Part shown: positions 8,423 to 54,625 of the stretch, in pieces
Position numbering within the stretch: the stretch's first letter is position 1
Layout: every line of letters starts with the position of its first letter
Source: a bacterium
GTDB taxonomy: Bacteria; Armatimonadota; Chthonomonadetes; Chthonomonadales; JAMCWF01
Direction: 5' to 3'
NCBI GenBank assembly: GCA_021842405.1
Contig: JAKBZR010000005.1
Location: forward strand, 2,354 to 66,353
Length of the DNA stretch: 64,000 nt
Program-made: the position numbers and the translations under genes
Notes under the pieces: model-generated
The model's database searches: none
What the model was told of the DNA's origin: nothing
What the model saw: the letters and a program-made list of their open reading frames with translations, nothing else

Positions 8423-9589
8423 CTATTCGGAAGGGCGCCCGCCGACGTCGCTGCCTGCCAGCGATGCCATTGGGATAAGTCCCACCGTCGTCTCTTCGCG
8501 TTGAGTAAAAAATGTTTTGCAAAACTGATCGCATGAGGCACAGGTTTTGCTGGGTGGCTCATTGCGTAAGGCCAGCTCGCGGTTACGCTGGAAAAGCTCG
8601 TTGTTCCAGATATCCCAAAAGTCGTGCTCCAAAAGATTCCCGTAGGAGTAGGTTTCTTTGAAGGGGGTGCAGCATCCCAACGTGATATCGCCGCTGTAGG
8701 CGACCCGAAACTCCTCACCCCAGAAGAAGGGGCAGAAGAAAGGCTTGCTGGGGTCGCTCCAACTGGCGTTTTCGTCGGGAAACGATTTACAGCGGACTCC
8801 TAATTGCTCCATCCGCGCCTTCGCCTGCTCCAACTCAACGTGATAAGATTCCCGACTGCGCCGATTTTTAAAGCCCCAATCATAGGCGGCAAAGGTGATG
8901 CAGTTGATAAAATCAACCCCAAACTCATGCGCCTGTTCCACAAATGGAACCAACTCCCCCACGTTTTCATTCAGCATGACGAAATTGATACCCAGCATCG
9001 GGAAACGGGCGCCGGTCTGACGCTTGGTGCGAACCAGACGCCGGATATTTTCATGGAGCACCTCCAGGTTGCCTCCACGCCTCACTCGGCGGTAGGTGTT
9101 GGGAAAAGCAGCGTCAATGCTGATGTTCAGCTCGGTGAGGCCGCTATCCATTAACCGCTCCGCCTTCTCTTGGTCAATGAGCATTCCGTTCGAGTAGATT
9201 CCGATTTTGCACCATGGACGCTCTTTACGGGTATAAGCGATCACATCGAAAAACCGCTTATACATCATCGGCTCCCCAAAACCGTTGACTGAAAGGTTCA
9301 TCACATAAGGGAATTGGGCCAGGATTCGCTGGAAATTTTCGTACTCGATGTCGCCCAGTTTGTATGGCTTCAACCCCAGCGACCTCAAGCATTGTATGCA
9401 GGCCAGATTGCACCGGTTTGTCAACTCAATCTCAATTCCGGGGGGCTGGCTCTTCATAATCAGCGGGCGCTCTCGGTACTCCTTCTGATACTGGCGGTAG
9501 TTCTTGAGGACCGCTGGGTGAACCAGTATGGTGAAGGCGTCATTTTCCTTTAATCTGCGGTAGTTATCTAACACACTCGTAAAAGCCAT
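8423..9589 (-). CDS. Radical SAM enzyme with C-terminal SPASM-type Cys cluster
   Basis: CNLACIQC (CxxxCxxC) lies near the N-terminus. The C-terminal Cys-rich tail reads FFCPFF...GCCTPF...CASCDQFC. Confidence 0.8.
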   Translation of the reverse strand: MAFTSVLDNYRRLKENDAFTILVHPAVLKNYRQYQKEYRERPLIMKSQPPGIEIELTNRCNLACIQCLRSLGLKPYKLGDIEYENFQRILAQFPYVMNLSVNGFGEPMMYKRFFDVIAYTRKERPWCKIGIYSNGMLIDQEKAERLMDSGLTELNISIDAAFPNTYRRVRRGGNLEVLHENIRRLVRTKRQTGARFPMLGINFVMLNENVGELVPFVEQAHEFGVDFINCITFAAYDWGFKNRRSRESYHVELEQAKARMEQLGVRCKSFPDENASWSDPSKPFFCPFFWGEEFRVAYSGDITLGCCTPFKETYSYGNLLEHDFWDIWNNELFQRNRELALRNEPPSKTCASCDQFCKTFFTQREETTVGLIPMASLAGSDVGGRPSE

Positions 9590-9699
9590 CTTAGCACCTC
9601 TTTTCCCGGGCCTACTTAGAATAGCGGGTCCTCATGCGATTATTAATTAGGACATTTGTTAATAGACACATGAGAATTCATTTCTCTTGGGATGATGGT

Positions 9700-9833
9700 G
9701 GAAGCATCGGCAGGCACCCCCACCCTAACCCTCCCCCTCAAGGGGAAGGGGAATATTTCTCCTCTCCAAACTTGGAGCGGGGACAGCGGTGAGAGCCTTC
9801 CACTTGAATTATCCAGAAAACAGAATCAATTCA
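9700..9833. repeat. Degenerate copy of the GC-rich MITE/repeat modules
   Basis: Contains cccccaccctaaccctccccctcaaggggaagggg and a degenerate right terminus ccagaaaacagaatcaattc. Coordinates are approximate. Confidence 0.4.
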
Positions 9834-9865
9834 TAATGTCAAATATATTACGTCCGGCGTAATAA

Positions 9866-11440
9866 CTAAGGCTGCTGTGCCTTAATTGGAGCGGCAACGG
9901 CTCTGGTTTCCGGCTTGTGTTTAGCAAATCGGGAGCGCCACCAGACATATCCCCTTACCCATGACCGCACCATCATATGAGGGATGTGGTGAATGTAAGT
10001 TCGGGTGACGGCCTGCCGTCCCTGCGCTTGCGCTCGGCGAAGTCGGTAGGGAATGATGGTCTCCAGCCTTGCCCATAACCGCGCGTAATCCAGATCGCGG
10101 GGCGTCAGGTGATTGGTCCGCATCGTGGCGGTGTAGCTGTTCCAATCCGAGTAGCGCATCCGCTTTGGTAGCAACCCTTCTGATAGGGCGCGCCAATACA
10201 TGGGCGTTCCGGGGAAGGGGGTCATCACCGTAAAGCCGCTCTCAACGTCCAGTTGCTGGGCAAACTCCCACGTTTTGCGGACGGTATCCCAATTCTCCTC
10301 CGGCGTTCCGAGGCAAAAAGTGCCGTAGATATGAAAGCCCAGTTCGTGGCAAAATTTAATTCGCTGCGCCAATTTCTCGTTGACCGATATCTTCTGGCCA
10401 ATGCTTTCCATGCAGGCGGCGTCCGCGGTCTCGATGCCGGTGGTGATGGTTGAGATACCGGCCTGCCGCATGGCTCTCAAAGTATCCTCATCGAAAACCT
10501 CAACCGAGGTCTCCACGGTTGCCTCTAACTTGACGTCCCGGCGAATAATGGCTTCGCAAAGCTCGCGGGCATATTTTCGGTTAAAACCGAAGTTGGGGTC
10601 TCGAAACCGCATCTTGTAGATGCCGTAGGTCTTGTTTAGGTATTCGATCTCGTCCACCACCTGCTCGATGGGGTTGGCGCGCCACGGTTTGCCCTCCAGC
10701 AACATATAGGGGCACATCGTGCAACCGATCGGGCACCCGCGGCTTGCCTGGATGTAGACGCCGAGTTTATCGAGGCGGCCGCCGGGAGCATAACGCTCCA
10801 GCGGCAGAAGGTGCCAGGCTGGACGCGGCAGCTCCTTCAGCTTATTCTGTTTCACCCAACCGCGGTATTGCTCCTCGTTTTTACTACCCATATAAAGCTC
10901 ATCGGACCGAAGCGGAACCCAATTTTTGGGGCAGATCACGCCCACCACCCGGTGATAATCCGGTGCATCCAGGATGTCGCCCATAACCGATTCCGGCTCG
11001 CCGAAAATCAAGAAATCAACGTCACACTGATGGATCCAGTGATTGACGGTGGTCATGATTACGCTGCCGAAAACGAAAACCTTCGCTCCGGGCAGCAGTT
11101 CCTTCATTCGATTGGCGAAATCGAGATCGAGCAATAAGGATGGGATGGATAGACGGATGCCGACCCACAGATCGCGGCTGCACTCCGGGTCAATGTGGTT
11201 TAATACGAATCGTTCCGCGCGCGGACCGTGCCAGCGATCCAGCAAAAGGTCAACAATATTAACCTTGCATCCCTTTTGTTCAGCCACCGCCGCCGTATAT
11301 AAGATATCAATGGGCGGCAAAACGGTTGCATCGCGCTCGAAAGGCTTCAGCTTCCGGGAAACACCGATCCCCCCCGAATAGGTACGCTCGTTGGTGTAGC
11401 CTTTCAGCTCGGGGGGGTTAACTAACAAAAGTTGTCGCAT
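9866..11440 (-). CDS. B12-binding-domain radical SAM enzyme (class B, methyltransferase-like)
   Basis: N-terminal Rossmann-like B12-binding region, then ASRGCPIGCTMCPY (CxxxCxxC). Confidence 0.8.
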   Translation of the reverse strand: MRQLLLVNPPELKGYTNERTYSGGIGVSRKLKPFERDATVLPPIDILYTAAVAEQKGCKVNIVDLLLDRWHGPRAERFVLNHIDPECSRDLWVGIRLSIPSLLLDLDFANRMKELLPGAKVFVFGSVIMTTVNHWIHQCDVDFLIFGEPESVMGDILDAPDYHRVVGVICPKNWVPLRSDELYMGSKNEEQYRGWVKQNKLKELPRPAWHLLPLERYAPGGRLDKLGVYIQASRGCPIGCTMCPYMLLEGKPWRANPIEQVVDEIEYLNKTYGIYKMRFRDPNFGFNRKYARELCEAIIRRDVKLEATVETSVEVFDEDTLRAMRQAGISTITTGIETADAACMESIGQKISVNEKLAQRIKFCHELGFHIYGTFCLGTPEENWDTVRKTWEFAQQLDVESGFTVMTPFPGTPMYWRALSEGLLPKRMRYSDWNSYTATMRTNHLTPRDLDYARLWARLETIIPYRLRRAQAQGRQAVTRTYIHHIPHMMVRSWVRGYVWWRSRFAKHKPETRAVAAPIKAQQP

Positions 11441-48889: not shown

Positions 48890-50527
48890 TTATTTATTTA
48901 TGATATTAGCACATCGTTTGAGGACGAGCATATCGCCGTTAGTGGATACGATCTTATAATAACCGTATTTAACTGCGGCCTGGAGCAGTGGTTTATACTG
49001 TTCCGGATCGGTTGCAACGATATAATCTATTTTATATTTTGACAGGAGCGGTTTCAATTTTGCCGGAAGTGGCGGGTGGTAGTTCAAATCTTCCTGTCGG
49101 ATAACTGCAGCGCCTGCCCCGTACCATGCCTTGATAAAAGGATTGGGAAACATGTAGATTTGATCGCGATGCGCCAGGTGAACCACCAGGCTGGGCGATG
49201 CGGATACCGAGGCTTGGGGCGGGATTTCAGCCAATATGGCATTCCGTTCTTGGAGGGCCACTTGGGGTGGCGCGTGTTTCCATAGATACGCCATGTTTTC
49301 CCACGGCCCAAAGCTCCAGAAGCAGAAGGTGCCCAAAAGCAGCAGCACCAAGCCAGCCAACTCGCCGCCGTACCGTGGTATCAAGTCGAAGCGCTTCAAT
49401 AGGTACCACAACCTCCCCAAACCGATGGCAGCCGCGCCGTAGACGAAAGGCAAGATGGCCGGCGTGTACTGCGCGTAGATCGTTTGCATAATTTGCCTTG
49501 TGCTCAGCAGGTCCATCATCAGCTCCGGCAAGGCGGCCAGCAGCAGTTCCGGGCATAAAAGGCAGAGGCCGGCGGCCGGTATAATAATCCGAAGCATGAA
49601 ATTAACATTGCCGGGCACCGCATAAGAGATCGTCCGGATCGGATGGAGGAGCACGTTCATTACGATCTGGAGCGGCGTTCGGCCCAGATAGCTGTAAAGC
49701 GCAACGTACCCGGTACCAGCTCCCGAAAGCCGGTGCATAACGGGCAGGCAGATGAGCAGCCACACGATGCCGGACATCATCACGGCAAAACCGGCGATCA
49801 GCCGCGTGTTGCGGCGCTGCCGCGAATCGCGTTGATGGGATTGTTTCGGCTCATTAATTGGTGAATTACCACCTCTGAATGCAGCCGATCTTAACATGAT
49901 AGCTATACCGTACACGGCCACGCTCAGCGCGATGTCCTGTCGGCAGCAGAGCGCCAGCAGCACCCAGACCGCAAGCATGCGGTAATTTTCACGCTCCATC
50001 GCGTCAATCGCGAACAGCAAGATCGGAGCGGCCGGCATATTCGGGTGAAAATCGAAGAGTGTGGGGTATCCCAGCGCCGGTGCGAACAGATAGGTGAAGC
50101 TCAAGCCGGCCGCCGCCGCTGGCGGCGCTGAATGGTGGCGGGCGATCCGGTATATCGGCCAAGCGCCGAGCGCCAGCGCAGCCGACTGGAAGGCCACCAG
50201 ACCCTGCGGCTCCGGTATGAACCAGTAGATCGGGGCGAGCAGAAACAGGATCGGCGTGAAATGATCGCCGAAGAGGTTCATTCCGCGGATCGTGTTGAAA
50301 AGGGACTGGAAGTGTGCGATTTGCCAAAGCGTCTGGTCATAAATACCAAGGTCAAAAGCATCCGCCTCAAATGCGGTGACTTTCTTGATGGACCATATCC
50401 CGTAGACGATCGCATAGGCCAGAATGCCAAGCCAGACGAGGTTGGAGGCAATCTGTTCGCTGGAGGCTGTGTTTTTGGAGCCTAAATTGGTTTTACTATT
50501 ACTAATCTTCTCCCCTTTTCTTTGCAT
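48890..50527 (-). CDS. DUF2079-family polytopic membrane protein (GT-C-like)
   Basis: DAFDLGIYDQTLWQIAHF lies near the N-terminus, there are at least 10 hydrophobic helices, and the C-terminal domain is soluble. Confidence 0.65.
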   Translation of the reverse strand: MQRKGEKISNSKTNLGSKNTASSEQIASNLVWLGILAYAIVYGIWSIKKVTAFEADAFDLGIYDQTLWQIAHFQSLFNTIRGMNLFGDHFTPILFLLAPIYWFIPEPQGLVAFQSAALALGAWPIYRIARHHSAPPAAAAGLSFTYLFAPALGYPTLFDFHPNMPAAPILLFAIDAMERENYRMLAVWVLLALCCRQDIALSVAVYGIAIMLRSAAFRGGNSPINEPKQSHQRDSRQRRNTRLIAGFAVMMSGIVWLLICLPVMHRLSGAGTGYVALYSYLGRTPLQIVMNVLLHPIRTISYAVPGNVNFMLRIIIPAAGLCLLCPELLLAALPELMMDLLSTRQIMQTIYAQYTPAILPFVYGAAAIGLGRLWYLLKRFDLIPRYGGELAGLVLLLLGTFCFWSFGPWENMAYLWKHAPPQVALQERNAILAEIPPQASVSASPSLVVHLAHRDQIYMFPNPFIKAWYGAGAAVIRQEDLNYHPPLPAKLKPLLSKYKIDYIVATDPEQYKPLLQAAVKYGYYKIVSTNGDMLVLKRCANIINK

Positions 50528-50539
50528 TATTGTTATATA

Positions 50540-51613
50540 TTATTGAATACCGCCACTAATTAGAAGGTTTGTAAGAGTATTAGTAATAGGCATCCCCGTC
50601 AAGTTTTCGATCCATTGCCATTGACCTGCCGTGTTGACTTCTAAAAATACATATTCACCTTCTGGGGTTAAGATCATATCAACACAACCGAATACCAAAT
50701 TAAGCTCTCTCATCAATATCAATAATTTGTTACTAATTTCATCGGGTAAATTATGTGGTTCATGATGGAGTAATCCGGAAGATTCAGCTAGTGCTTGAGC
50801 ACGAAAATCCACCTTCGTATCTTCACGTTCCTGAGAATGTATTTCAGCGGCGAAAATATTATTTCCGATAATAGTTATCCTTATTTCGATGCGTTTATTG
50901 ATATATTCTTGAAATATAGCAGGGCATCCTGCAACCAATTTCAAATATGGAATTTTATCAATGGTTAATAATTGAGATAATAATGCTTTTACTTCAGGTT
51001 CTCGGTTGATAGGTGGAGCAGGTGGAATGTTAAAATGATTTTTATAAGCTGTCTGAATTTCTAATGAAAAATCAGGCGGACCACCAGTTGTTAGTCCAAT
51101 AACAGGTTTAAACAAGACTGTTCCGGATATTGATTCTACAAATTCATTAACTGCAGCGGGATCATTTGTAATGATGGTTTTAGGGACTTTAAGACCAACT
51201 CTTCTTGCTACTTCAAATTGGTATGGTTTGACATTCGCTCGATAATCGCTGATAAAATGATTTACCCAAAAACAATGCATACTTTCAAATGCACCGTGCA
51301 GCATACTGGCGCATTCATGCCTTATGAATCCTCTCTCCTGCTCTGTTTTAACGTTGGGGAATACGAACTCTCCTATCCTGCGTCTCCATAATGCTGTTAT
51401 ATTTCTAGTATCAATCTCAGTTCCATTGAATTTAAATACGGCATATAGTTCTTCATTGCCGGCAAATAATCTTACGTTTGTAATAAGAGGTATAGTCTCC
51501 GTATTCAAACGAAACCACGGGATCTCTTTTTTATCCAACTGTGCAGTAACGCTATCAACGTTTGGTTCAAAGTATTGAGTAATGATGAAAACAAATGGTT
51601 TTTGATGTTTCAT
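50540..51613 (-). CDS. ATP-grasp enzyme of the MdnC/MvdD-like 'ribosomal peptide maturase' type
   Basis: 357 aa. The N-terminal pre-ATP-grasp domain reads VFIITQYFEPNVDSVTAQLDKKEIPWFRLNTETIP...ALWRRR. The C-terminal signature reads YVFLEVNTAGQWQWIENLTGMPI. The gene lies in AT-rich DNA. Confidence 0.7.
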   Translation of the reverse strand: MKHQKPFVFIITQYFEPNVDSVTAQLDKKEIPWFRLNTETIPLITNVRLFAGNEELYAVFKFNGTEIDTRNITALWRRRIGEFVFPNVKTEQERGFIRHECASMLHGAFESMHCFWVNHFISDYRANVKPYQFEVARRVGLKVPKTIITNDPAAVNEFVESISGTVLFKPVIGLTTGGPPDFSLEIQTAYKNHFNIPPAPPINREPEVKALLSQLLTIDKIPYLKLVAGCPAIFQEYINKRIEIRITIIGNNIFAAEIHSQEREDTKVDFRAQALAESSGLLHHEPHNLPDEISNKLLILMRELNLVFGCVDMILTPEGEYVFLEVNTAGQWQWIENLTGMPITNTLTNLLISGGIQ

Positions 51614-51615
51614 TT

Positions 51616-52209
51616 TTATTCTGTTTTATTGCACACATTCAGAGCTTTACGCATTTCTTTTGCAACTAATGGGTTTTTTTCAGACAATAAAGCCGCGGAT
51701 AGTGATTGGAGTGTTCCTGTCAACCGCTGTCTTTCAATAAGATAGGCTGCATCCCAGCGCACTGCTGGTTGGGGGTTTTTGATGAATGTTGTCGCTGCCT
51801 TTGTCATCCAATTGACCTCGTACATTCTAAAAGCCACATCATTTTTAGGCAAGTCTATTGAGAGTAGTGCGCCCAATGCGCCGACATTGACCACCCAATC
51901 ATACGGATTTTTATCAGGATAAAAAACAAATGTCAAAAGCTGATCGAATTGTTGCTGCGTATAGTGTTTTCTCCTAGGATTTTGTACACCTCGCGGAGCA
52001 GATAAAGCATACAAATTTGCACATGCCTCCATTGCGATCGGCGTTGGATGCATTTCTTTAGGTACAAGACGCTGTAAATCTTGCGTGTTCGAGTTTTCAA
52101 ATGGAGATGAGAAATTCCCCCCGATGATTCCTGCCACGTAAAATATAGTTATAACACAAATGAATAATATTAGTCCGATGAATATTTTTTTTGATGTCAA
52201 ATATTTCAT
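51616..52209 (-). CDS. N-terminally membrane-anchored HEAT-like repeat protein
   Basis: The TM helix is IFIGLILFICVITIFYVAGII. Repeats such as DKNPYDWVVNVGALGALL, NPQPAVRWDAAYLI and EKNPLVAKEMRKAL follow. The stop lies 2 nt from the ATP-grasp ATG. I preferred the ATG at 52209 over the GTG at 52221. Confidence 0.5.
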   Translation of the reverse strand: MKYLTSKKIFIGLILFICVITIFYVAGIIGGNFSSPFENSNTQDLQRLVPKEMHPTPIAMEACANLYALSAPRGVQNPRRKHYTQQQFDQLLTFVFYPDKNPYDWVVNVGALGALLSIDLPKNDVAFRMYEVNWMTKAATTFIKNPQPAVRWDAAYLIERQRLTGTLQSLSAALLSEKNPLVAKEMRKALNVCNKTE

Positions 52210-52265
52210 CTGAGGGCTCACTTTGTTCTAGAAATTTATCAATTTGTTTTAGTCATCACTAAATT

Positions 52266-52306
52266 GGGTACTGCCCCAATTTAAGTTAAAAGCTGCGGCA
52301 GTACCC
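52266..52306 (-). terminator. 10-bp perfect GC-rich stem-loop between the 128-aa ORF and the next gene (candidate attenuator or partial terminator)
   Basis: The arms gggtactgcc / ggcagtaccc enclose a 21-nt loop. On the minus strand the hairpin is followed by aattt. Confidence 0.4.
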
Positions 52307-52342: not shown

Positions 52343-52729
52343 CTAAAAAGTGTAAGTATAGGAAGTTTCAATTTGACCTGGTGGGCTTGTCTCACTGCCA
52401 TCACTGTCGCTATCATCTGGGAAAATACGAGGGTTGCCTACCGCTTCTGAAAAGACGGAATTGTGTCCGTAAAATGTTTCGGCAGGCACATTTTTCGCCC
52501 AGAGCATTACGAATGGCGTATAATGCTCAACTTCCAAGTTTCCCTTATTCTCTAGCAAAGCTTCCACTTTAATCCCCCCTTTCCGAACCGTACTATTTTC
52601 GGAACTATACCAGTTATCCTTAGCTCCGATATCGACAGATGAGATTTTATCACGTAAGATTTGATCACGCAATACTGCAATTGCATTATTTTTATTCGCT
52701 TTGACCGATACTTTCCTTGTCCTCTTCAT
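52343..52729 (-). CDS. 128-aa protein with Asp/Ser/Thr-rich C-terminal tail; candidate substrate of the ATP-grasp enzyme
   Basis: ATG 52729 forms an ATGA overlap with the regulator stop. The tail reads FPDDSDSDGSETSPPGQIETSYTYTF. There is no signal peptide and no family is recognised. Confidence 0.45.
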   Translation of the reverse strand: MKRTRKVSVKANKNNAIAVLRDQILRDKISSVDIGAKDNWYSSENSTVRKGGIKVEALLENKGNLEVEHYTPFVMLWAKNVPAETFYGHNSVFSEAVGNPRIFPDDSDSDGSETSPPGQIETSYTYTF

Positions 52730-52959
52730 TTTGAGGGGGGGGGGGGCAATTCGATCCATCCCATCTGTAAGGCGATGATCAGAGCCTCGGTTCGCTCATG
52801 AGCCCCTAAATTGATGCAAATCTGCTGGAATTCAGTGCGTACCGTGTTGTTGGAAATGTAGAGCAGGCGGGCCAGCTTTCGGCTGTTGACGGTTCGGTGA
52901 TTCAATCCGGCTTGAAGCAACCTGATTTGCGTGCTTGTCAAAGGGTTGCGATTATTCAT
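52726..52959 (-). CDS. GerE/LuxR-type stand-alone HTH regulator (77 aa)
   Basis: LTSTQIRLLQAGLNHRTVNSRKLARLLYISNNTVRTEFQQICINLGAHERTEALIIALQMGWI. The start was moved to ATG 52959 after ggaggag. The longer track ORF runs into the MITE. Confidence 0.7.
   Translation of the reverse strand: MNNRNPLTSTQIRLLQAGLNHRTVNSRKLARLLYISNNTVRTEFQQICINLGAHERTEALIIALQMGWIELPPPPSK
52735..52746. repeat. Homopolymer G12 (C12 on the coding strand)
   Basis: I counted it directly. It encodes PPPP, starting 3 codons before the stop of the HTH gene, and lies 6-17 nt upstream of the next ORF's ATG. Confidence 0.95.
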
Positions 52960-53042
52960 TACCGCTCCTCCACGGCAAAAAACACCATCACTTCCATTAT
53001 AATACGCTTGCGAATGGCCGTCAAGCGGCCGTATTACTAGAG

Positions 53043-53383: not shown

Positions 53384-54625
53384 ATGAACAAAGGAAAAAT
53401 TGGAGTGGGATGGGCAACCGGCTTGCTCACCCTCACCCTCTTTGCCGGTACCGCGCTCGTCAGCCAGGCTCAGCCCGGCTCCCCCTCGCACTGGAGGGCG
53501 CACCGCCCCCTGATCGTGCGGGGAATGCTTATCGGTCCGCCTCGTCCCGGCGCTCCCTTCATCCAATTCCCGATTCCAAATGCGAGAAAGAGCAACAAGG
53601 GTAAGGGCGGCGGCGGCGGGACCAGCTCCTCGTCCATAGTCTACTACGGCCCTCAATCCATTTGGTACGCTTATAACTATCCATTTACAACATCATCTAT
53701 CGGCTCAAGTAATGACGGCTCCGGCCAAACCATTGCGATCGTGGACGCATACTCTGATCCTTCCATCTTTACAGACCTGTCGGCCTTCGATTCTCACTTC
53801 GGCCTGCCGGATCCCCCATCCTTTGCGATTTTACAGCCGGAAGGAACACCGGCACCTAACAGCAATTGGGCGACCGAGCAGTCGCTGGATGTCGAGTGGG
53901 CCCACGCGATGGCGCCGGGCGCTAACATCGTGCTGGTTGAGGCGACAAGCAGCTCATTGAGCAATCTTCTGAATGCGGTGGCTGCAGCAGTAAAGTCCGG
54001 AGCGAGCGTCGTTTCGATGAGCTGGGGTGGCAGCGAATTTTCCAGTGAAAGTTACTACGATTCATTCTTTAGCGCCAGTGGTGTAAGTTTTGTCGCATCG
54101 TCCGGCGATTCACATGGCGTCTTCTGGCCCGCCGCCTCGCCCGATGTGATCGGCGTCGGCGGCACGACGCTGGATATGAGTGGAAATTCCGTCACCAGCG
54201 AGACGGCTTGGTCCGACAGCGGGGGCGGGTTCAGCTCGTATGAAGCAGAACCCTCATGGCAAGTCAGTTTTGCTGCCACGCCTGATGGTGGGTCGCTTAC
54301 CAAAGATCGCAAACATACACGCGGCGTTCCCGATGTGAGCTACGATGCAAACCCCAATACCGGTTTGCTGATCGTCTATAATGGTACTTGGTACGTGGTG
54401 GGCGGCACCAGTTGCGGCGCGCCTCAGTGGGCGGCGATAATCGCGCTCGCAAACCAGAAGCTTGCTTCAACGACCGTCGGTGGATCGGCGGGATCAGACC
54501 TTTATGGGCTGGCCACCAACGGATATAGCACCTATTTCAGAGATATACTGAATTCAGGCACCGGATATGATCTTTATACCGGGCTGGGAAGCCCCAATGT
54601 CAATCATTTAATTTCCGGATTGTAA
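53384..54625 (+). CDS. Secreted S53 (sedolisin-type) serine peptidase
   Basis: Signal peptide. IAIVDAY, LDVEWAHAMAPGA, SGDSHG and GGTSCGAPQWAA fit the Ser-Glu-Asp sedolisin pattern. Confidence 0.7.
   Translation: MNKGKIGVGWATGLLTLTLFAGTALVSQAQPGSPSHWRAHRPLIVRGMLIGPPRPGAPFIQFPIPNARKSNKGKGGGGGTSSSSIVYYGPQSIWYAYNYPFTTSSIGSSNDGSGQTIAIVDAYSDPSIFTDLSAFDSHFGLPDPPSFAILQPEGTPAPNSNWATEQSLDVEWAHAMAPGANIVLVEATSSSLSNLLNAVAAAVKSGASVVSMSWGGSEFSSESYYDSFFSASGVSFVASSGDSHGVFWPAASPDVIGVGGTTLDMSGNSVTSETAWSDSGGGFSSYEAEPSWQVSFAATPDGGSLTKDRKHTRGVPDVSYDANPNTGLLIVYNGTWYVVGGTSCGAPQWAAIIALANQKLASTTVGGSAGSDLYGLATNGYSTYFRDILNSGTGYDLYTGLGSPNVNHLISGL

Follow-up and report, generated by a model that had tools for sequence, protein, structure and literature searches.

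Graspetides form a fast-growing class of RiPPs (ribosomally synthesised peptides that are modified after translation), which includes potent protease inhibitors and is diverse in ring topology and accessory proteins. We describe here a candidate graspetide precursor on the reverse strand of a 64,000-nucleotide stretch of DNA (hereafter the window) from a bacterium of the Armatimonadota (assembly GCA_021842405.1, contig JAKBZR010000005.1, positions 2,354 to 66,353), where an initial annotation, made from the letters alone, had proposed a 128-aa open reading frame (ORF) at 52343..52729 as the substrate of a nearby ATP-grasp ligase with an ester-only core. Two surveys divide graspetides into 43 groups (Carter et al. 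2026) and 174 predicted families (Makarova et al. 2022). Makarova et al. derived a leader signature, Phhx(1,2)h, functionally equated with the ligase-activating PFFARFL helix of microviridins (PMC8939145). The ester-only peptide rosaritide (group 21; MirA/MirB/MirC) carries three macrolactones installed with a TIGR04187-type ligase, MirB; its precursor MirA ends R-P-D-T-D-S-D-F, in which D22, D24 and D26 are proven ester acceptors (PMC13097080). In stem-loop graspetides, equally spaced donors and acceptors on two strands give ring-within-ring ladders, and the general rule for graspetide cores is that donors are N-terminal and acceptors C-terminal (10.1101/2023.06.21.545981).

Comparison of the window with related loci leads us to conclude that the C-terminal 74 residues of the ORF are very probably a graspetide precursor, cross-linked by the ATP-grasp ligase encoded two genes downstream, just where the initial annotation had placed it. 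In 12 of 12 related loci with readable DNA (L006, L007/8, L009, L010-L013, L014/15, L016 and L017; about ten lineages), one or two precursor-like small ORFs lie 0.1-0.7 kb upstream of the orthologous ligase, and the ligases form a graded series of relatives at 69%, 56%, 45-49% and 36% identity. A metagenome scan seeded with the precursor motif alone recovered L014-L016, all with the ligase immediately downstream. Homologs lacking the tail or occurring without an ATP-grasp neighbour, named beforehand as grounds for abandoning the proposal, did not turn up: the tail was kept, and the ligase lay downstream in every readable locus. Nor did a better short precursor ORF emerge within the island, as tblastx against nine related loci revealed no other conserved small coding segment. 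A scan of genome contigs with the ligase as query returned one distant gammaproteobacterial relative only and was uninformative.

The precursor itself has very few relatives. A word-indexed search of 5.8 billion proteins with the 128-aa ORF returned only the query, whereas exhaustive HMMER searching of 1.84 billion representatives yielded three true relatives (190, 74 and 70 aa), which align solely to query residues ~60-128; a fourth match, P0125, a eukaryotic FN3/fibrinogen repeat protein, was spurious on inspection. A profile of ten sequences gave ten clusters in all, that is, ~10 clusters among 5.8 billion proteins. The ORF matched no family in Pfam or NCBIfam, and the protein searches assigned it to no unrelated family, in agreement with the initial annotation, which had recognised none. 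The precursor would thus appear to belong to a small undescribed family found mainly in Armatimonadota-type bacteria.

Two parts of the precursor are conserved in different ways. In the motif T-P-F-V-M-L-W-A, which matches the published signature Phhx(1,2)h and is predicted to bind the ligase, the P, W and A do not vary in any member of the family. The C-terminal 26 residues, FPDDSDSDGSETSPPGQIETSYTYTF, contain six Asp/Glu, 11 Ser/Thr/Tyr and no Lys, much as had been noted at the outset, and the core of the window precursor as a whole (PDDSDSDGSETSPPGQIETSYTYTF) is likewise free of Lys. Among the six sequences of the closest subfamily, three alternating acids, one further acid, four Ser/Thr and one Tyr keep their class throughout and the intervening linker varies, which is the outcome that the initial annotation had sought from an alignment of homologs. 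This subfamily (A; ligases at least 56% identical; the window, L006 with two copies, L007/8, L009 and L014/15) shares the pattern P-x-D-x-D-x-(D/E) ... (E/D)-(T/S)-S-x-(T/S)-Y-T-(F/W/G). The precursors of subfamily B (L010-L013, L016) have different D/E/S/T-rich cores, and that of L017 (ligase 36% identical) terminates in D-T-S-I-T-F, similar to the hydroxyl cluster of the window. The core is therefore hypervariable between subfamilies and the leader residues P, W, A, F and S are invariant, and an invariant leader followed in this way by a variable core is what would be expected of a RiPP precursor. The dN/dS ratio (nonsynonymous to synonymous substitutions) of the precursor frame was 0.18-0.29 in pairs that are not saturated, and the frame is therefore translated and under purifying selection. 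Since six independent sequences agree in its acid and hydroxyl positions and the frame is under such selection, the tail is, as judged from these alignments, more than a chance composition.

The ligase is of the RiPP-maturase type. It matches PF21068, the MvdD pre-ATP-grasp domain (45.1 bits, 1.3e-11; cutoff 27), and PF08443 (29.2 bits; cutoff 21), and its top NCBIfam matches are all "ATP-grasp ribosomal peptide maturase" models, of which TIGR04187 is the best (9.9e-67) and MvdC and MvdD are others. The nearest solved structures are MdnB (5IG8, 1.7e-40) and MdnC (5IG9), then AMdnB and CdnC; the alignment with MdnB extends over both domains and includes the E-x-N motif "FLEVN" (Mg/ATP). Because of the PF21068 match, the maturase-model matches and the proximity to MdnB and MdnC, we conclude from homology that the ligase is a divergent graspetide synthetase outside the curated subfamilies, of the branch known to recognise a leader helix.

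The length of the candidate, 128 aa, had been considered a difficulty for a precursor. It is the longest ATG-initiated form of a frame that is stop-free over 150 codons, and it is called as a gene on 14 contigs of the same species, but it is not necessarily the product. Conservation of the precursor frame in tblastx ends at 52528, homologs are mostly 66-83 aa with a start codon 7-17 codons ahead of the leader motif, and GTG 52567 in the window lies exactly 17 codons ahead of that motif. Most homologs have an in-frame stop a few codons 5' of the start, which usually follows an AAGGAGG-type site. Because the extent of conservation, the homolog start positions and a Shine-Dalgarno-like run (Table 1) agree, the precursor is probably translated mainly from GTG 52567 as a 74-aa product. 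With a conserved unit of 74 aa the objection from length falls, and a 138-aa precursor in any case adjoins a related ligase (L018). The gene model is corrected accordingly, to 74 aa instead of 128 aa, and this bears on any heterologous expression. The 54 residues ahead of the GTG are conserved in no homolog found by exhaustive HMMER or tblastx searches, and their sequence is unique to this species. An AlphaFold2 (AF2) model of the 128-aa form with the family alignment contained no folded domain (predicted template modelling score, pTM, 0.19) and showed a local confidence peak at the leader motif; one helix was predicted at residues 13-31 of the non-conserved N-terminus (predicted local distance difference test, pLDDT, ~70), the remainder of the extension being disordered. 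The early impression of a folded or leader-like N-terminal region therefore did not hold, whereas the absence of a signal peptide did, there being no hydrophobic signal-like segment at the candidate N-terminus.

The extension nonetheless prompts an alternative, which we consider unlikely, in which the full 128-aa protein or a fusion of regulator and precursor is the functional product, made through translational coupling at the ATGA overlap with the upstream helix-turn-helix (HTH) regulator or through a +1 slip in a C12 tract, so that the extension would serve as a leader or as a link tying the peptide to the regulator. Only 0.9% of shuffles leave the 54 upstream codons free of stops, and the ATG of these codons overlaps the regulator stop codon, but a C-run rather than a ribosome-binding site lies 5' of this ATG, and most other lineages have in-frame stops just 5' of a short ORF with its own Shine-Dalgarno site. 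In a Chthonomonas-type lineage, represented by four samples, the regulator and precursor form one uninterrupted ORF of 184-190 aa (L009:1110-1727; P0122, P0146, P0147, P0148); however, this ORF itself embeds a 70-aa precursor with its own AAGGAGG and ATG, and only the 70-aa form is annotated by NCBI (WP_324199480.1). The length of the C tract differs from one assembly to another (C12 in the window, L001, L003 and L004; C11 in L002, at L002:2888), and its equivalent is C8 in L007 (L007:3914) and C9 in L008 (L008:2529), two otherwise near-identical loci. Although a tract of C13 or C10 in the window would join regulator and precursor into a single ORF, an exact look-up of the predicted C9-C15 protein variants found C12 on 7 contigs and C11 on 1, and no fused C10/C13 variant was present among 15 billion recorded proteins. 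With C12 and C11 alone on record, these data offer weak support for phase variation through the tract, and the single C11 among eight contigs is compatible with assembly error. The 74-aa product therefore remains the one we favour, and the tract together with the fused ORFs of the relatives might at most hint at a new coupling of RiPP production to a regulator. Within the spacer of 160 nt between regulator and precursor, which is A+T-rich, two of the three frames are open, and the +1 frame of the extension (52552-52686, reverse strand) holds an almost stop-free 44-aa ORF.

Gene callers report the regulator as a 77-aa form, and in L007/L008 and L009 the precursor also has a homologous HTH gene upstream. 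We propose that transcription of the operon probably starts at a promoter upstream of this small regulator and that the precursor would be translated mainly from GTG 52567. The leader TPFVMLWAK and the downstream FSE would dock on the ligase as the microviridin PFFARFL helix does on MdnC, and the ligase would phosphorylate Asp/Glu side chains of the core with ATP, after which Ser/Thr hydroxyls would attack the acyl phosphates and form macrolactones. An ester-only product is predicted because the core has no Lys; the family conservation, ligase co-occurrence, purifying selection and ligase type all support the initial proposal of such a core, the esters themselves being predicted. The likely acceptors are the D-x-D-x-D triad D106, D108 and D110 (numbering of the 128-aa form), and the most parsimonious donors are S123, T125 and T127 of the C-terminal S-x-T-x-T. 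Because these two sets are in exact antiparallel register (52+73 = 54+71 = 56+69 = 125 in 74-aa numbering), we propose a hairpin ladder of three rungs, D110-S123, D108-T125 and D106-T127, which would resemble the stems of amycolimiditide and albusimiditide except that its acceptor strand comes first; the predicted mass loss is 54 Da. In an alternative pairing, the invariant Ser of FSE or other upstream hydroxyls could act as donors, as in rosaritide.

The stem-loop directly after the precursor had been taken for a leaky hairpin of the kind that accompanies over-expressed precursors. The hairpin is real: the 124-nt intergenic region folds at -33.4 kcal/mol (z = -4.5; 0 of 200 shuffles as stable), and strong stem-loops of unrelated sequence stand directly 3' of the precursor stop in most orthologous loci, those of L011, L012 and L013b being followed by U-runs. 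A search of the island against Rfam, hairpin included, gave no match. The recurrence of position favours a part for the stem-loops in expressing precursor and enzymes at different levels, a role drawn from other RiPP and bacteriocin operons. The stem-loop would probably stabilise or partly terminate the transcript and so leave more precursor mRNA than enzyme mRNA.

Between the precursor and the ligase lies P201, which combines a membrane helix at its N-terminus with an all-helical domain weakly similar to HEAT repeats (HEAT_2; four of six members, E down to 0.03). Beyond this, P201 had no Pfam assignment and no PDB relatives, and a single-sequence AF2 model was poor (pLDDT 50). On the inferred topology, P201 seems to be held in the membrane by its anchor, the domain facing away from the cytoplasm. 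Its position permits a further alternative, which we rate as highly improbable, namely that the small protein is an accessory factor (a chaperone, an immunity protein or an acidic-tailed regulator) while the ATP-grasp enzyme modifies P201 or extends a C-terminus in the manner of RimK. Partner proteins are known in graspetide systems (PMC13097080), P201 is interposed in this way in the closest subfamily and is duplicated with the small ORF in L006, and the ligase has weak RimK-type matches (PF08443, 8e-07; TIGR00768, 6e-12); yet the MvdD pre-ATP-grasp domain marks peptide maturases, and a ligase with no membrane or signal segment would be on the other side of the membrane from the domain of P201 if the inferred topology is right. 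Moreover, P201 and the DUF2079 membrane protein that follows the ligase accompany it solely in subfamily A, being absent from subfamily B loci and L017, and yet a small ORF with the same leader lies directly upstream of the ligase in all of these. An invariant leader with a hypervariable D/E/S/T-rich C-terminus is also typical of RiPP precursors and not of accessory proteins. We thus retain the small ORF as the substrate. In L006 (L006:2364-4987), units of P201 and precursor alternate, with three P201 copies (one apparently degraded), two divergent precursors and a single ligase, and a second, split DUF2079 paralog is present downstream (8553-10051).

Several points weigh against a graspetide precursor of 74 aa as we describe it. 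The support is comparative and not chemical: modification of the peptide is predicted, and any cleavage or export is hypothetical. The ligase scores below every curated maturase cutoff (TIGR04187, 225 of 350 bits; TIGR04185, 200 of 425; TIGR04184, 194 of 475; TIGR04192, 103 of 230), and the conserved cluster encodes no leader peptidase or transporter. The core has its conserved acid triad ahead of the conserved hydroxyl cluster, with one invariant Ser (that of FSE) upstream, a polarity that, with the proposed pairing, would be opposite to the general rule for graspetide cores. A terminator scan did not call the hairpin at 52266-52306, which lacks a U-tract. Finally, the extension is free of stops over a length that chance would seldom allow, so that translational coupling may yield a product of more than 74 aa. 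A bolder interpretation, that the reversed-polarity ladder, a dependence of maturation or action on P201 and DUF2079 as extracytoplasmic membrane proteins new to RiPP clusters, and expression tied to the HTH regulator jointly define an undescribed graspetide class, seems to us improbable; if true, the regulator-precursor ORF or the slippage-prone poly-C tract would make peptide production phase-variable or autoregulated.

The remainder of the neighbourhood (Table 1) bears on the origin of the cluster. The G+C fraction at third codon positions (GC3) is 0.28 in the ligase, 0.37 in P201 and 0.40 in the precursor, as compared to 0.66 in DUF2079 and 0.57-0.65 in flanking genes; the break falls sharply inside the cluster, although the adjacency of ligase and DUF2079 is kept in five lineages. 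Because the cluster genes are lower in GC than their surroundings in all loci, an accessory, horizontally mobile origin is suggested by base composition. Inverted repeats of 63 nt flanking the five-gene block were considered as island boundaries and rejected, as the same element, a G+C-rich intergenic repeat whose core is CCCCACCCCRGCCCTCCCC, has 10 copies in the 64 kb where 0.03 would be expected, often paired in inverted orientation ~100 nt apart, and is a genome-wide intergenic repeat. The divergent S53 peptidase was likewise rejected as a leader peptidase or target because it adjoins the cluster only in this species. DUF2079 had no PDB relative and no secondary Pfam hits, and a search of one literature library found no papers on it; membership of the GT-C glycosyltransferase clan was accordingly unsupported. 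In the covered portion of the co-occurrence tables of the 43 published graspetide groups, PF09852/DUF2079 does not appear.

Related loci differ in their surroundings. The subfamily B clusters L010-L013 consistently adjoin a prepilin-type N-methyl/SBP_bac_10 (DUF1559-like) gene upstream of the precursors and are inserted between flagellar blocks, with FliM/FliN on one side and FliL/MotAB on the other. In L010, a complete 4.2-Mb genome, transposase genes precede the ligase, and two precursor-like sequences (L010:1571-1807 and L010:4610-4855) are either truncated or lack an evident start codon, so that the cluster is probably in decay here. The neighbourhood of P0047 comprises a 77-aa ORF, the ligase and a tyrosinase.

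Table 1. Features of the precursor locus and its surroundings in the window (positions count from the first letter of the window; aa, amino acids)
Feature	Position	Strand	Description or basis
Candidate ORF, 128 aa	52343..52729	-	ATG to TAG, stop codon included; ATG overlaps the TGA of the upstream regulator (ATGA)
Conserved precursor unit, 74 aa	52343..52567	-	GTG at 52567-52565; residues 55-128 of the long ORF; probable product, from homology, homolog starts and dN/dS
N-terminal extension, 54 codons (MKRTRKVSVKANKNN...GGIK)	52568..52729	-	non-conserved; coding status uncertain
Shine-Dalgarno-like run GGAAAGGGGGG	52574..52584	-	6-nt spacer to the GTG start
Putative leader recognition motif P-F-V-M-L-W-A	52496..52516	-	residues 72-78 of the 128-aa form; invariance and fit to Phhx(1,2)h
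Second motif F-S-E	52445..52453	-	F93 and S94 invariant; family alignment
Core acid segment P-D-D-S-D-S-D	52400..52420	-	pattern P-x-D-x-D-x-(D/E); alternating acids invariant by class in six sequences
C-terminal hydroxyl cluster E-T-S-Y-T-Y-T-F	52346..52369	-	pattern (E/D)-(T/S)-S-x-(T/S)-Y-T-(F/W/G)
Stem-loop (GGGUACUGCC...GGCAGUACCC)	52266..52306	-	between precursor and next gene; 10-bp G+C-rich stem, no U-tract
P201, family not recognised	51616..52221	-	201 aa from GTG; 197 aa from ATG 52209, used by gene callers
ATP-grasp ligase, RiPP-maturase (MvdD/MdnC-like) type	50540..51613	-	two genes downstream of precursor; PF21068, TIGR04187 and PDB matches
DUF2079 polytopic membrane protein	48890..50527	-	PF09852, 7.3e-60; syntenic with ligase in five lineages
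LuxR/GerE-like HTH regulator, ORF 117 aa	52726..53079	-	likely start M41 at 52959, giving 77 aa; weak GerE/Mga/MadR matches
C12 homopolymer	52735..52746	-	encodes PPPP at the regulator end; 5 nt before the precursor ATG
Sigma-70-like promoter match TTGACG-17-TATAAT	52996..53024	-	11/12, consensus match only; candidate operon promoter upstream of the likely regulator start
Secreted sedolisin/kumamolisin-type S53 peptidase	53384-54625	+	divergent; PDB 1T1E, 1.5e-28; not called by Pfam at E<=0.01
Intergenic repeat copies	9718, 17308, 31870/31971, 33300, 42078/42179, 48809, 53091/53193		resembling repetitive extragenic palindromes or miniature inverted-repeat transposable elements (REP/MITE-like); genome-wide

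Among described systems, the microviridins (group 1; MdnA, MdnB/MdnC, with CdnC of chryseoviridin) are closest by ligase: MdnB, MdnC, AMdnB and CdnC are its nearest structures, it carries the MvdD pre-ATP-grasp domain, and in both systems the precursor gene is upstream of the ligase and encodes a Pro-hydrophobic leader (PFVMLWA here, PFFARFL there) ahead of an Asp/Glu/Ser/Thr-rich core. However, the window precursor is not a microviridin, because its core lacks the motif TxKxPSDx(D/E)(D/E); without Lys it would form no lactam. It also shows no detectable homology to the microviridin precursor, its acids precede the conserved hydroxyl cluster, and its cluster has a single ligase and encodes neither an acetyltransferase nor an ABC transporter.

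The core resembles that of rosaritide in that both have an alternating acid triad preceded by Pro, the window pattern being P-x-D-(S/T)-D-x-(D/E). The ligases are alike in their TIGR04187 type, the best NCBIfam model of the window ligase, a likeness by model and not by direct alignment, and in both systems a conserved, non-enzymatic-looking protein stands beside the ligase. In MirA, though, the triad sits at the very C-terminal end with the donors S8, S9 and T11 upstream of it, whereas in the window the triad is followed by the Ser/Thr cluster and preceded by one invariant Ser. The MirA leader is of the PCAT-type GG kind and lacks the PF..WA motif, a PpiC-type PPIase takes the place of P201 as partner, rosaritide clusters have a PCAT transporter that is absent here, and they belong to Actinomycetota rather than Armatimonadota.

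With the graspimiditides (fuscimiditide, amycolimiditide and albusimiditide) the window core shares the i, i+2, i+4 spacing on both sides, but its acid strand comes first, at the N-terminal side, the reverse of their strand order. The window precursor is no graspimiditide, as the cluster has no PIMT; no methyltransferase gene is present in the island or the subfamily A loci, there is no conserved Asp-Gly aspartimide site, and the accessory genes differ. The nearest named relative of the ligase (33-34% identity) lies in a Chloroflexi locus (L018:1984-4735) that is a graspimiditide-style cluster with a PIMT-type methyltransferase, whose 138-aa precursor has the leader KPFGYHFLTWAEE (...FLTWAEE). 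This suggests, on a comparison of leaders, that the ...WAE feature is shared more widely than the present family. RimK/LysX amino-acid ligases have the ATP-grasp fold, give weak model matches and act on an acidic protein C-terminus, but they have neither the MvdD pre-ATP-grasp domain nor leader-bearing precursors, and the window ligase scores 45 bits with them as compared to 225 with maturase models.

The window precursor thus agrees with described graspetides in its ligase co-occurrence, its leader motif and its conserved core acids and hydroxyls, the cross-links being predicted. Within the partial coverage of the supplementary data of Carter et al. 2026 and Makarova et al. 2022, the leader strings, the accessions MCL5283626/MCL5283628 of the relatives and DUF2079/PF09852 did not occur. 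We therefore place it inside the known graspetide class as a new family of precursors whose core polarity is unusual and whose accessory proteins are new, as far as the covered survey data set it apart. The family would add to this class a type of precursor from a phylum that has been little studied, the Armatimonadota, a core in which the conserved acids stand ahead of the conserved hydroxyls, a testable prediction of a three-ester ladder and two conserved membrane partners, P201 and DUF2079.

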